From Dictyostelium discoideum (Eukaryota), in NCBI GenBank assembly GCA_000004695.1, contig CM000151.3, positions 4,896,001 to 4,960,000 on the forward strand: a DNA stretch of 64,000 nucleotides. The letters are read 5' to 3'. Positions 28,863 to 38,530 of this stretch are shown one piece after another. The notes under the pieces are model-generated. The model was given only the letters and a program-made list of their open reading frames with translations. It did no database searches and was not told the origin of the DNA. A program made the translations under genes and the position numbers. Every line of letters begins with the position of its first letter. Position 1 is the first letter of the stretch.

Positions 28863-29121
28863 TTATAAGTTGTACATTGGTCTAGTGAAAATGCTGTTAT
28901 AGTATTTATTTGTATCAGAGATTTGGTTGTTTTTATATGATAATTTTGATTCAACCATTATATTATTAGTTGTTAATTGTTTTGATTTAATAGATGAATT
29001 TAATAATTGATTTAATGAATCTGGATTTTTTTTAATAAAAAAAAAAAAACTGAATTAGAATATTAATTAAACTTTTTTTAAAAAAAAAAAAAAAAAAAAA
29101 ATAAAACTTACTGAATAACAT
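28863..29121 (-). CDS. Small split-gene peptide family member A (55 aa); complement(join(29112..29121,28863..29020))
   Basis: Micro-exon ATGTTATTCA, donor gtaagt, 85-nt AT-rich intron, acceptor ccag|a. Product: MLFNSLNQLLNSSIKSKQLTTNNIMVESKLSYKNNQISDTNKYYNSIFTRPMYNL. Stop is TAA. Confidence 0.55.
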
Positions 29122-29705
29122 TTTTTATTATTTTTTTTATTTATTTAAATTTAAAATAATTATATAGATGTTTATTTGTTTGAATAATGAATTAATAATT
29201 ATAAAAAAAAAATTTGTTTATATATTTTTTTTTTTTTTTTTTTTTCGTTTTTATTATTATTTTTAATTTTTTTATTTTTTAATTTTATTTTTTAATGAAA
29301 TTTTATAAGTTAGTACTAAAGTATTGATGAAAACATATTTGTAGTTTAAATGTCAACAACATATCAAGCTTGATTTTAAAAGGAAATCATTTTTTAAATT
29401 ATTTTTTTCCTTATAAAAAAATTATTTTATTACAAGTTACTTTAACCCCCACAAACACACACCAACACCATAAACTTACACAAGCCATAATATTTAATAT
29501 GAATTTCTATTATTCTGAACAAGTAATGGTAAATCATTATTTTAACATCACTATCTTATTTTTAACTTGTTATCGCCATTGACATTTTTTTTTTTAAAAT
29601 CATTTGGCCTCATTATAACAAGTATTTAATTCAAATATATATATATATTTTATAACAATTAATTATTCTATGAAAATTAAATATAATTTTTTTTTTTGTG
29701 TTTTG

Positions 29706-29741
<36 letters not shown>

Positions 29742-30005
29742 AAAAAAAAAACAAAACTATATAAAAATAAATCAACCTCTTTTCTGTGTTTTTAAAAAAA
29801 ATAAATCCAATTTAAAAAATATTATATTATATAACCAATTTAAAAATTTATTGTTTCATTATAAAATAAATAAATAAATAAAAGTAAAAAAAAAAAAAAA
29901 AAAAAATTAATTTTATAGCAATATAAATAAATAATTTTTATTATTTCAATTTTAAAGTCGACAAATTTTGAAAATTTTTTTTTAAATAAATAGTTATAAT
30001 TTAAT

Positions 30006-30259
30006 TTAAAAATTGTACATTTGAGGTCTGGTAAATAAAACTGCATTGTAATGAGTATTCTTTCCCGATGATTTGTTAATATCAAATGAAGTTTCAGTTG
30101 AAAATTTGGAAATATCTGATATTGTTGATTTATTTAATGAGGTAATTTGATTTAAAGATTCTATAATTAAGTGAAAAAAAAAAATAGTTAGTTTTAATTT
30201 TTTTTTTTTTTATTTTTTTTTTTAAAAAAAAAAAAAAGTTAAAACTTACTGAATAACAT
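30006..30259 (-). CDS. Small split-gene peptide family member B (54 aa); complement(join(30250..30259,30006..30160))
   Basis: ATGTTATTCA|gtaagt...tatag|. Product: MLFKSLNQITSLNKSTISDISKFSTETSFDINKSSGKNTHYNAVLFTRPQMYNF. Confidence 0.55.
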
Positions 30260-31051
30260 TTTTGATGATATATTTTCTAATTTTTTTATTATAAATAAAC
30301 TATATATGTTGAGTTTTATTTTTTAATTTTTAATGATTAAATGATTTAATGATTTAATGATTTAATAATTTAATGATTTTATAATTTATATTTTTAATTT
30401 TTATATATTTTTTTTTTTTAAAAATAAAATTCACCTTTAAGATATTTAATGATAGTAAAAGTGGAAATTTGTAATACCGAAAAAAAAAATAATGATAATT
30501 TTAATTTTATTATTATTTATAAAAAAAATATACAAGGATGAAATTTTAACAACACACTCTCACACTCACACACTCCACCTGAAAATTATTGTATTCGATT
30601 TTTTAAAATCTTAATTAAATATTAGTAAGTACAAGTAAGGTTATTAAAAAGAATTTTTGGATTAAACCCAATTTAATTTTTACAATACTTGTTATCATTG
30701 TTTATAATATTTTTTTACAAAAATAAATTAATATATATTTTAATATATCATTTATTTATACAACAAGTAAATCAAATAAATAAATATAAAAAATAAATAA
30801 AAAAACACACTATTTTTATTTTTTATTTTTATCATTTTTTAATTATATAAAAGTAATTTCAATGAATTATAATTCATATAATTTTTTATATTTTTTTTTT
30901 TTTTTTTTTTTTTTTAATAATAATTTAATAATAAATAAAAAACTTAACTAAAAAACTATATCAATTTAAAAACTATTTTTGTGATAATTTTAGATTGTTA
31001 ATTAATTTTATTTTTTATTTTATAATTTAATTTTATAATTTAAATTGATCT

Positions 31052-31086
<35 letters not shown>

Positions 31087-31227
31087 TTTATAATAAATAA
31101 TTAATAATTGTTTTTTTTTTTTTTTTTTTTTATTTTTCCCTTTTTAAAGTCGACCAATTTAATTTATAAAAATAATTTTTGATAAATCAGATTATGATTT
31201 TTTATTTTTTTAATTATTTAAAAAAAC

Positions 31228-31508
31228 CTTAAAAATTATACATTTGAGGCCTTGTGAAAATAACATTGTTGTAATGTCTACTTGTATTACAATTTGAATC
31301 ACTACTGAATTCAAATTGTTGAATGTTTTGTCCATTTTCAAAGTTTGCTAAAAACTCTGAAGAGTTTGAACTTGTTGATAAGGATGATGATGAATTTATT
31401 TGATTTAAAGATTCTGATTAAATTTTAGAAATATTAATTAATAAAATGATGCAAATTAAAAAAATTAGTTAACAACAAAATATATTTTTTACACATACTG
31501 AATAACAT
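31228..31508 (-). CDS. Small split-gene peptide family member C (64 aa); complement(join(31499..31508,31228..31412))
   Basis: ATGTTATTCA|gtatgt...aatcag|. Product: MLFKSLNQINSSSSLSTSSNSSEFLANFENGQNIQQFEFSSDSNCNTSRHYNNVIFTRPQMYNF. Confidence 0.55.
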
Positions 31509-36273: not shown

Positions 36274-36551
36274 TTAGAAACTATACATTTGTGGTCTTGT
36301 AAAGACTGCATTATTATAATGTTTATTTGTTCCAACAGTATTATTCATTTCAAATAAATTTGATAATTCATTAGAATTGATTGAAACTTGTACAATTTTA
36401 TTTGATGATGATGATGATGATGATGATGAAAATAATTGATTTAATGATTCTAAATTTAGAAAAAATAAAAAATATAATTTTAAAATTAATATATAATTAA
36501 TTTAATTAATAAAAATAAATTAGTAATAAATTAATACATACTGAATAACAT
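36274..36551 (-). CDS. Small split-gene peptide family member F (61 aa); complement(join(36542..36551,36274..36449))
   Basis: ATGTTATTCA|gtatgt...aaatttag|. Product: MLFKSLNQLFSSSSSSSSSNKIVQVSINSNELSNLFEMNNTVGTNKHYNNAVFTRPQMYSF. Confidence 0.55.
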
Positions 36552-37237
36552 TTTAATTTTTATTATATATTTTTTTTAATTAATAATTGAAGTTAATTTA
36601 AAAACTAATAATAGTATATATATTTTATTGTAATAGTTTTTTTTATTTGTTGTTGTTGATTTTGATTTTATTGTTGAATGATGATATAAAATTTTTTTTT
36701 TTTTCTATTTAAATAAAAAATCAAATTCAATTGAGGAAATGGTAGTTAAAAGTATTGTTTTAAAAATGATGGGATAATTTGTAGTTTGTTGTTGACAACA
36801 TATCTTAAACTACATGACTTTATTTAATTTTATTTAATTTTAATTTTAATTTTTATTTTTATTCACCCACTAACCCCACCAAGCAAAAAATCACGATACC
36901 TTTCACAAGTAAAAACGACTATATTTAGTTTATTTTTCACTTGTGGTAATATTTTAAAATATTTATATATATATATACTTATATATATAAAAATATAAAA
37001 GGGTAAAAGAGGGAAAATTAAATTTTAAAAATCATCATTTTTTAAATTTATATCCTGAATTTCATAACAATATTACCAAAACAATCTCATACTTGATTTT
37101 ATTCAATTATTTGATTACATTTATTTGGTATTAAATTTTATTTGTATCAAATTTAGTTTTCTCATTTTTTTAATAAAATATTTTATAATAAAATCGAAAA
37201 AGTAAAAGAAATAATAATAATAATAATAATTTTAAAA

Positions 37238-37280
<43 letters not shown>

Positions 37281-37431
37281 AATTGTTTTATTTTAGAATG
37301 AAAAAAAAAGATAGTTTATTTTTGATTTAATGATACAAATTTATTGAATTATTTTACATTTTTTAATTTTTAATTTTTTTTTTTCTTTAATTATTTCTTT
37401 TAAAAAAGAAAAATAACAATAATCATTATAA

Positions 37432-37697
37432 TTATAATTCAAAACAATAACTTGGTTTCACAAATAAAATTGATTTTGTTGTTATTCTTAATGAGTTGAT
37501 TTCATTTGAGTTATTTAAATAATTGTTAAAATCAATTGATACATTATTTATTTTATTATATTTAATTATTGAATTTGATTTAAAATTTTGATTTAATGAT
37601 TCTAAAAATTATGTTATATAAATATATATATATATATATATTAGTAAAAATATTAATTAAGATTAATTAATTTAATTTTTTACTTACTATATAGCAT
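37432..37697 (-). CDS. Small split-gene peptide family member G (59 aa, variant start MLY and variant C-terminus); complement(join(37688..37697,37432..37601))
   Basis: ATGCTATATA|gtaagt...tttttag|. Product: MLYKSLNQNFKSNSIIKYNKINNVSIDFNNYLNNSNEINSLRITTKSILFVKPSYCFEL. Confidence 0.5.
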
Positions 37698-38207
37698 TTT
37701 ATTTTTTATATTGTTTTTCTTTTTTTTTTAAAAAATTAAAATTTTTGGATATTTGTAGAATTGAGGTGAAATAAAATATAAATAAAAAAAATAAAAATTT
37801 TAATTTCTTTTTATAAATCAAAAAAAAAAATATATTAATATATATAAAAAATAATAATAATAATAATAAAAATAAATTAAAAATATTAAGTTTATTATTT
37901 CTTTTTTTTTTGAAAAAAGGGAAAAAAAAAAAAACTAAAATACAAGTATTGTAATTAAAATGTTGATGCAGTAAAATTAATTTATTTTTATTTAATCAAA
38001 TAATAAATGAAGAATAAAATAAAAATTAATAATTTTTAAAATTTCATACATTCCATAATAAAAAAAGTTTAAAAAATTTCTTAAACTAAAATTTGTGCGA
38101 GTGTGGGTGAAATAAATTATTTTTTTTTTTTTATTTTTTATTTTTTTATTTTTTTTATTTCTTGTTTTTACTTAATTTTTATTTTCTAAAATAAAAATTA
38201 TTCCTTA

Positions 38208-38267
<60 letters not shown>

Positions 38268-38268
38268 T

Positions 38269-38530
38269 TTAAAGATTTGTCCAAAACATTTGTGGTCTTG
38301 TAAAGACTGCACTAGCTTTTACTGATGATGATAAACTATTTTGAGAATATGAAATACTAGTTAAATCATTATTTTGATGATTAAAATTATTATTTAATTT
38401 ATTATATCCATTTATATTAATTACTTGGTTTATTGATTCTATTAATAAAAATAAAGATAAAAATTTTTTTATTAATATACAATTAATAATTTATAATTAA
38501 AAAAAAAAAATTGAACCTACTAAATAACAT
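38269..38530 (-). CDS. Small split-gene peptide family member H (59 aa); complement(join(38521..38530,38269..38438))
   Basis: ATGTTATTTA|gtaggt...taatag|. Product: MLFKSINQVININGYNKLNNNFNHQNNDLTSISYSQNSLSSSVKASAVFTRPQMFWTNL. Confidence 0.5.

Follow-up and report, generated by a model that had tools for sequence, protein, structure and literature searches.

The hssA/2C/7E/sigN family (PF05710, "Coiled") comprises about 96 genes that encode small proteins in Dictyostelium discoideum (Vicente et al., 2008, PMC2257962; Kin et al., 2018, PMC6198379). These genes have a first-exon open reading frame (ORF) of 13 nucleotides (nt) (89 of the 96 genes; PMC2257962), introns of 66-111 nt, and a second exon of 214-268 nt. 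They occur in tandem groups on chromosome 2, carry GBF-like boxes, are induced at 10-12 h, and show prestalk or late cup expression (PMC2257962; PMC6198379). In this work, we analyzed an extremely AT-rich, 64,000-nt stretch of D. discoideum AX4 chromosome 2 (the window), which carries a tandem array of small two-exon genes on its minus strand. Our preferred reading, to which we assign a probability of about 0.6, is that these genes belong to an old, lineage-restricted family of small developmental proteins, known so far from D. discoideum and D. firmibasis, that would act through the five steps proposed below.

An initial annotation of the window had reported eight minus-strand units of a single shared architecture at positions 28863-38530. 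A mechanical scan of that strand recovered exactly these eight; it required 10 nt that begin with ATG, a GT donor, an AG acceptor located 50-250 nt further downstream, and a frame that stays open for 40 codons or more (ATGs of units 1-8: 38530, 37697, 36551, 33704, 32612, 31508, 30259, and 29121). Exon 1 contributes 10 coding nt, which read ATGTTATTCA in six units, ATGTTATTTA in one, and ATGCTATATA in one. The reported donors (GTAAGT, GTATGT, or GTAGGT), AG acceptors (TAG or CAG), second exons of 155-185 nt with TAA stops throughout, and products of 54-64 amino acids (aa) were all confirmed for units 1-8. The GT..AG structure of the introns also held, and their reported lengths of 76-112 nt had to be corrected to 82-118 nt. 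The reported spacing of about 1.1 kb is not uniform; successive ATGs are separated by 833, 1146, 2847, 1092, 1104, 1249, and 1138 nt, and the 2847-nt step between units 3 and 4 houses an unrelated gene for a 231-aa protein with an MJ1316 domain, which is a domain of RNA cyclic group end recognition (34622-35317, minus strand). Because exon 1 also includes 5' untranslated region, the label "micro-exon" given to the 10-nt stretch does not apply. Every start codon is surrounded by the A-rich context that is usual for the D. discoideum genome. A ninth unit lies beyond the reported range, across a gap of 100 N, and a tblastn search of the window with the peptides added this unit alone. The members of the array are as follows.

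Unit 1 (DDB_G0275137): 38269..38530, minus strand; 59 aa, MLFKSINQ...AVFTRPQMFWTNL; exon-1 coding part 38521-38530, intron 38439-38520 (82 nt), exon 2 38269-38438.
Unit 2: 37432..37697, minus strand; 59 aa, MLYKSLNQ...SILFVKPSYCFEL; intron 37602-37687 (86 nt), exon 2 37432-37601.
Unit 3 (DDB_G0275135): 36274..36551, minus strand; 61 aa; intron 36450-36541 (92 nt), exon 2 36274-36449.
Unit 4 (DDB_G0275131): 33416..33704, minus strand; 56 aa, ending SLFFVKPCYCF; intron 33577-33694 (118 nt), exon 2 33416-33576.
Unit 5 (DDB_G0275233): 32353..32612, minus strand; 58 aa; intron 32520-32602 (83 nt), exon 2 32353-32519.
Unit 6 (DDB_G0275231): 31229..31508, minus strand; 64 aa, ending ..VIFTRPQMYNF in the two-exon reading; intron 31414-31498 (85 nt), exon 2 31229-31413.
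Unit 7 (DDB_G0275175): 30006..30259, minus strand; 54 aa; intron 30161-30249 (89 nt), exon 2 30006-30160.
Unit 8 (DDB_G0275229): 28863..29121, minus strand; 55 aa, ending ..YYNSIFTRPMYNL; intron 29021-29111 (91 nt), exon 2 28863-29020.
Assembly gap inside the array: 28706..28805, 100 N; takes out the start and promoter of unit 9.
Unit 9: 28423..28705, minus strand; (M)LFDQINQ...FFTRPYWSQY; exon 2 28423-28595, intron of about 102 nt.

The orthologous region of D. firmibasis contains ten units of the same architecture, and an eleventh, dispersed copy is found in another locus of this species (L004). In both species, the array is flanked by genes for a CDP-alcohol phosphatidyltransferase and an FKBP on one side and by genes for a cyclin and two V-ATPase proteolipids on the other, and the MJ1316 gene is found inside the array at an equivalent place. 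Across both species, all 20 units have a first-exon ORF of 10 nt, and six of the ten D. firmibasis array units coincide exactly with annotated two-exon models. Recurrence of the same architecture and frame in ten syntenic units and one dispersed unit of D. firmibasis is far beyond chance.

For all nine window units, the best D. firmibasis match is the positional orthologue. Orthologues are 53-80% identical over their full length (70% for unit 1 and its counterpart u1', 80% for unit 3, and 74% for unit 9 and u9') and 36-71% identical in the middle, and the middles of paralogues share only 12-49%. At the nucleotide level, identity between species is 69-85% in exon 2, 47-70% in introns, and at the level of shuffled sequence in the 3' flanks. 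Differences in exon-2 length are multiples of 3 in all nine pairs (chance for the eight non-zero cases, about 1.5e-4). By the Nei-Gojobori method over 504 aligned codons, the ratio of nonsynonymous to synonymous divergence (dN/dS) of the whole coding sequence is 0.37 (dS 0.53, dN 0.19; Fisher p = 3e-13). The termini (first 8 and last 14 codons) have a ratio of 0.15 and the middle has one of 0.49, and all three values lie significantly below 1; for comparison, the neighboring MJ1316 gene has a dS of 0.45 and a dN/dS of 0.21. Given the conserved exon-2 island, the frame-preserving lengths, and dN/dS below 1, the units are protein-coding genes under purifying selection.

The unit-for-unit orthologous array in D. 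firmibasis also means that the array arose before the two species diverged. Alignments and orthologues bear out the view that these are real two-exon genes of one family, with conserved termini and middles that differ between paralogues. The family had further been called rapidly diversifying with a hypervariable middle. This description did not survive the comparison of termini with middle: the middle is relaxed rather than hypervariable, and since each unit has a positional orthologue in D. firmibasis, the differences between paralogues are old.

Several of these results bear on the idea that the transcripts act as RNAs with incidental ORFs, or that prediction artefacts, pseudogenes, or repeat fragments account for the units. 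An RNA role has been suggested for hssA, the overexpression of which is effective even when the gene is frame-shifted. For the present array, we regard such explanations as barely credible, given that the selection statistics are strong, that all indels preserve the frame, and that start codon, donor, frame, and stop are retained in 20 units of two species. The units also occupy unique syntenic positions in the array and are regulated genes, and Rfam and tRNA scans of the window gave no match. A generic repeat search of the window was dominated by A/T low-complexity sequence. Two simple repeats are located next to units: an (AAT)n microsatellite at 38205-38270, directly 3' of the stop codon of unit 1, and an (ATTT)n run at 37225-37270, in the spacer past unit 2.

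The array genes had been described as distinct from hssA/2C/7E, and every sequence-based test of membership agreed. No match to PF05710 was found in 13 different family proteins (eight array peptides at E<=1, and eight proteins, five of them further members, at E<=10), and the positive controls P0022 and P0021 scored 73.9 and 68 bits (cut-off 21.4). In hhalign, the alignment of the family against hssA had a probability of 0.1% and an E-value of 0.46, which is a weak test with a comparator of two sequences. The composition also differs, with 1.7% Gly and 1.0% Cys in the family and 17.8% and 4.1% in hssA/2C/7E. Furthermore, a hidden Markov model (HMM) search of 1.84 billion representative proteins returned family members only and no hssA-type protein.

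The likenesses are nevertheless extensive. Both groups are lineage-restricted small proteins encoded by two exons, with few exon-1 codons, short AT-rich introns in phase 1, and second exons that span about 160-270 nt across the two groups. Both form tandem clusters on chromosome 2, and both have GBF-like G-boxes, post-aggregation induction, prestalk or late expression, and paralogue-specific timing. In contrast, the first-exon ORF is 10 nt here and 13 nt there, the products have 51-65 aa here and about 75-93 aa there, and the number of genes is about 14 here and about 96 there. The present proteins are S/N-rich and Gly-poor, lack the G/S/C-rich body and the C-terminal Cys motif, and have a C-terminal motif of their own (FTRPQMY.F or FVKPCYCF).

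One may read these likenesses as signs of common ancestry, with the array as a very divergent hssA/2C/7E/sigN branch in which one exon-1 codon was lost and the G/S/C-rich body was replaced. The tiny first-exon ORF, the phase-1 intron after ..L-[FIL] in both, the introns of 66-111 nt, the short second exon, the clusters on chromosome 2, the GBF-like boxes, induction from about 10 h, and prestalk expression would all fit, and the N-termini are loosely alike (MTLIGSVSSMSN and M-LFKSLNQLLSS). However, an intron right after the start codon may simply be common in the D. discoideum genome, and shared clustering, timing, and G-boxes do not define homology. Together with the failed profile, hhalign, and composition tests, this makes the divergent-branch explanation rather doubtful. 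Because every sequence-based membership test failed, we file the array genes as a separate family of the same kind.

Beyond the array, a word-index profile search identified the further D. discoideum members DDB_G0275827, DDB_G0275825, and DDB_G0271318, and the exhaustive HMM search added DDB_G0287205 and DDB_G0286475. The dispersed D. discoideum copies were seen at the protein level. The family therefore has at least 14 members in D. discoideum, nine of them in the array. Both searches returned family proteins of D. discoideum and D. firmibasis, and neither gave a homologue from any third organism. Among JGI metagenome contigs, the patterns MLFKSLNQ and FTRPQMY had 302 matches, none of them relatives. 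Pfam scans of the family proteins (E<=1 and E<=10) gave only noise and no family, and a sequence profile search of the Protein Data Bank matched no solved structure. In line with the initial annotation, which had recognized no named Dictyostelium family, the protein records and the literature searched contained no name for these genes, and a full-text search found no paper on 12 family gene ids or the peptide motifs.

Published RNA sequencing (RNA-seq) tables, which were computed on annotated gene models, cover several members. For unit 4, the Parikh 2010 values in the supplement of Kin et al. (2018; PMC6198379) are 0, 0, 2.8, 29.5, 25.7, 12.1, and 10.1 over 0-24 h, such that vegetative cells are silent and induction occurs at 8-12 h. 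The same source gives 61.4 in prestalk and 8.3 in prespore cells, with values near zero in mature cup, spore, stalk, and vegetative cells. In Rosengarten et al. (2015; PMC4403905), Additional file 7 tabulates the genes that are differentially expressed at each point of a high-resolution RNA-seq time course. In the passages retrieved from this file, nine family members occur solely in two "UP" sheets, as follows.

Units 1 and 8: up at 18 h and 20 h, filters.
Unit 7: up at 18 h, filters.
Unit 6: up at 20 h, filters.
Unit 5: up at 14 h, filters, and at 5 h, cAMP-pulsed suspension.
Unit 3: up at 3 h and 5 h, cAMP-pulsed suspension.
Unit 4: up at 5 h, suspension.
DDB_G0286475: up at 14 h, filters.
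DDB_G0287205: up at 16 h, filters.

Based on the published values and these lists, the family genes are transcribed under developmental control and fall into two sets, an early one that follows aggregation and a late one at culmination.

Two kinds of elements were found upstream of these genes. Most units have GT-rich boxes (CA-rich on the other strand) about 200-410 nt upstream of the ATG. PMC2257962 quotes (T/G)G(T/G)G(T/G)G(T/G) as the response element of GBF. In the -450..-150 segments of 18 promoters, we counted 33 GBF heptamers, or 1.83 per 300 nt, which is an enrichment of about 4-fold over the background of 0.42-0.55 per 300 nt in the regions of both species as a whole. The second is a 28-nt nested palindrome. 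The elements in the window are listed below.

36864..36882, minus strand: GT-rich G-box-like element TTGGTGGGGTTAGTGGGTG, about 330 nt upstream of unit 3.
32954-32979: similar G-box-like element, unit 5.
29443-29471: similar G-box-like element, unit 8.
About 30550-30580: similar G-box-like element, unit 7.
About 38775-38800: similar G-box-like element, unit 1.
36777..36804, minus strand: 28-nt element GATATGTTGTCAACAACAAACTACAAAT, nested palindrome, 253 nt upstream of the unit 3 ATG.
32865-32892, minus strand: identical copy of GATATGTTGTCAACAACAAACTACAAAT, 280 nt upstream of unit 5.

G-boxes occur at matching positions in D. firmibasis u3', u5', u7', and u8'. The 28-nt element is identical (28/28) upstream of u3' (L001 9731-9758) and matches at 24/28 positions upstream of u5', and the intergenic DNA that flanks it is near shuffled-sequence identity between species. 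Downstream of it come a TATA-like TTAAATAGAAA box and a T run. These promoter motifs, together with the expression timing, suggest that the family promoters may depend on GBF. The possibility that the 28-nt element and the G-boxes are parts of a non-coding RNA gene was dropped because no Rfam match exists and the position is upstream of a TATA-like box. Units 3 and 5, which have the exact 28-nt copies in front of them, are both in the set induced in cAMP-pulsed suspension. Also, a degenerate copy is found upstream of unit 8, near 29340-29370.

At the protein level, an example of a predicted family peptide is HYNAAVFTRPQMYSF. The initial annotation had six products ending in ..[HY]YN..FTRPQ..; four of them have an exact ..YN..FTRPQMY[SN]F end, and units 1 and 8 have only variants. 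Two C-terminal types can be distinguished, namely, ..[HY]YN..[VIL]FTRPQMY.F and, in units 2 and 4 and their orthologues, ..S[IL][LF]F[VF]KP.YCF, and each type is conserved between species. Net charge is mostly +2 to +4 (one member has -1), and S, N, T, and Q make up 36-55% of residues. Residues 1-11 form a strongly amphipathic helix, the hydrophobic moment of which (0.48-0.64) is surpassed in 0.3-6.5% of shuffled sequences. From the family alignment, AlphaFold predicted a helix at residues 2-10 only, with low confidence for the rest (mean predicted local distance difference test score 57.8, predicted template modeling score 0.20); the remainder of these proteins is predicted to be disordered. 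No hydrophobic stretch fit for a signal peptide or a membrane span was found in the family proteins, and the maximum 15-residue Kyte-Doolittle mean, a measure of hydropathy only, is below 1.0 in all 13 D. discoideum members. Since a hydrophobic signal sequence is lacking, classical secretion appears unlikely.

These features could be those of small mitochondrial proteins, in which the basic, hydroxyl-rich, and acid-poor N-terminal 20-30 residues with their amphipathic helix would serve as a presequence. The first acidic residue is at position 19-37 in most members, and net charge is positive in all but one. However, acidic residues come early in unit 9 (Asp at position 4) and in DDB_G0287205 (Glu at position 13), the helix has only about 10 residues, and S/N-rich, acid-poor stretches are common in the D. 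discoideum proteome, so we consider a mitochondrial destination very improbable.

Plant CLE-type and fungal MSDIN precursors are small peptide-precursor families that combine a conserved end motif with a variable middle. The present family resembles them in its conserved termini, less conserved middle, multigene organization, and short products. It differs in that the middle is long (25-45 residues) and conserved between orthologues, and that a signal peptide, flanking cleavage motifs, or a processing-enzyme gene in the conserved neighborhood are absent. The array genes may nonetheless encode leaderless precursors of secreted or processed signaling peptides. Other cells would then sense the conserved C-terminal 15-mer, or part of it, after its release, with unconventional export as for AcbA/SDF-2. 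Small proteins with conserved ends and a looser middle, developmental expression, and the prestalk bias of one member fit this idea. Moreover, secretion has been proposed for the analogous sigN small proteins by authors who reported that these stain in vesicles and that antibodies affect mounds. On the other side, the proteins have no signal peptide or hydrophobic segment, the alignments have no dibasic or other recurrent cleavage motif beside the conserved C-terminus, and genes for a protease or a transporter are absent from the conserved neighborhood. Conservation at the N-terminus equals that at the C-terminus, and a simple pro-region would have no need for this. We thus treat released signaling peptides as a tentative, unlikely alternative.

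The preferred reading of a family of small developmental proteins can be set out in five steps. First, each gene would have its own promoter with GBF-type G-boxes, in some cases with the 28-nt palindrome, and would be transcribed after aggregation or cAMP signaling. Second, splicing of a phase-1 intron of 70-122 nt would join the 10 coding nt (M-L-F plus one base) to exon 2 (AATC..), as conservation and existing gene models suggest. Third, translation would yield a basic, S/N-rich protein of 51-65 residues that is kept by purifying selection. Fourth, an N-terminal amphipathic helix of about 10 residues (MLFKSLNQLL) may target or anchor the protein, and beyond a disordered, paralogue-specific spacer, a C-terminal motif of about 15 residues may bind a partner or serve as a processing signal, either inside developing cells or after leaderless release. 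Fifth, the paralogues would split developmental time, with units 3-5 early (post-aggregation or cAMP pulses), unit 4 prestalk-enriched, and units 1, 6, 7, and 8 at 18-20 h.

Several points weigh against this proposal. Splicing and translation are deduced rather than read from a direct RNA-seq read, expressed sequence tag, or peptide, and the bipartite mode of action through helix and C-terminal motif is a weak inference. Nei-Gojobori estimates of dN/dS are approximate in so AT-rich a genome. The D. firmibasis annotation drew on Trinity transcripts and on the D. discoideum proteome as evidence; because of the latter, its gene models are supportive and not fully independent. In the extracts of the Rosengarten et al. 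(2015) file (PMC4403905), time points were assigned by counting table columns, and the listing for units 3 and 5 leaves out two later occurrences of their ids. Finally, DDB_G0271318 is zero in mature cell types, and prestalk enrichment is on record for one member (unit 4).

The array genes had also been reported as missed by the ORF track. This is true for plain ORF lists; in the reference annotation, seven of the eight units are present as hypothetical proteins. Units 1, 3, 4, 5, 7, and 8 match AX4 proteins exactly, all of them named "hypothetical" or "uncharacterized." Unit 6 matches DDB_G0275231 except at the C-terminus, where the reference product ends in ..FTRPQISI owing to a predicted second intron of 192 nt (31050-31245 region, minus strand; donor AT/GTATAA right after CCTCAA, acceptor near 31050). 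This intron is probably a prediction artefact that strips the conserved family end, and the two-exon reading is better because the D. firmibasis orthologue u6' ends in FTRPQMYSF. The unit 2 protein had no match in a collection of 15 billion proteins, and the consecutive XP_ accession numbers of its neighbors leave no slot for it; therefore, unit 2 is probably unannotated in AX4. An annotated D. firmibasis protein, RB653_002206, is its orthologue (55% identity). In unit 9, the exon-1 coding part is reduced to its final 8 nt (GTTATTCG, 28698-28705), which are followed by GTATGA and abut the N gap, where the ATG is lost; D. firmibasis u9' retains an intact ATGCTATTCG followed by GTATGA. Since u8' and u9' of D. 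firmibasis are separated by an additional unit, u8b', the gap at 28706-28805 may hide one further (tenth) D. discoideum unit.

Some D. firmibasis family members are likewise truncated, mis-modelled, or unannotated (L001 16497-16756 and 17556-17818; L003 about 11138-11391, which is u8b', and 12301-12608; L004 7843-8126). Models of 42 aa and 41 aa begin at an internal Met, a 21-aa model spans the end of u8b', and u6' and u9' have no gene model. A complete two-exon reading is available for every one of these members.

The neighborhood of the array includes ORFs at 21455-21784 (minus strand), 24574-25065 (plus strand), 26148-26585 (plus strand), and 26788-27234 (minus strand), among which are two V-ATPase proteolipid-like (ATP-synt_C) genes, a cyclin-like gene, and a gene for a Thr/Pro-repeat protein. 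The two proteolipid-like genes and the cyclin-like gene are syntenic with D. firmibasis locus L003. An inverted paralogue of the MJ1316 gene is located 14 kb away at 20421-21131 (plus strand), with 76% protein identity, and the D. firmibasis region fetched has only one copy of this gene.

What is newly described here is modest: the definition of the family, its pattern of conservation and selection, two promoter elements, staggered timing, and three annotation corrections (one unannotated member, one gap-truncated member, and one doubtful C-terminus). The gain is incremental, as the reference annotation and expression tables already included most of these genes, and one family of this type was known before. 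Dictyostelium development relies on small proteins and peptides, several of which have no assigned gene, and whole families of tiny genes of this kind exist. The present array defines a second family of small developmental proteins, unrelated by sequence to hssA/2C/7E/sigN, and offers a compact experimental target of nine genes within 10 kb and two short motifs. A more speculative and quite improbable view is that these genes represent a class, not described before, of leaderless developmental micro-proteins. The C-terminal 15-mer (..HYNxAVFTRPQMYSF or ..FVKPCYCF) would be the released or displayed signal, the helix would direct unconventional export or membrane docking, and the paralogues would be stage- or cell-type-specific versions. 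If this is true, the array could supply one of the developmental peptide signals of Dictyostelium that are genetically unassigned.

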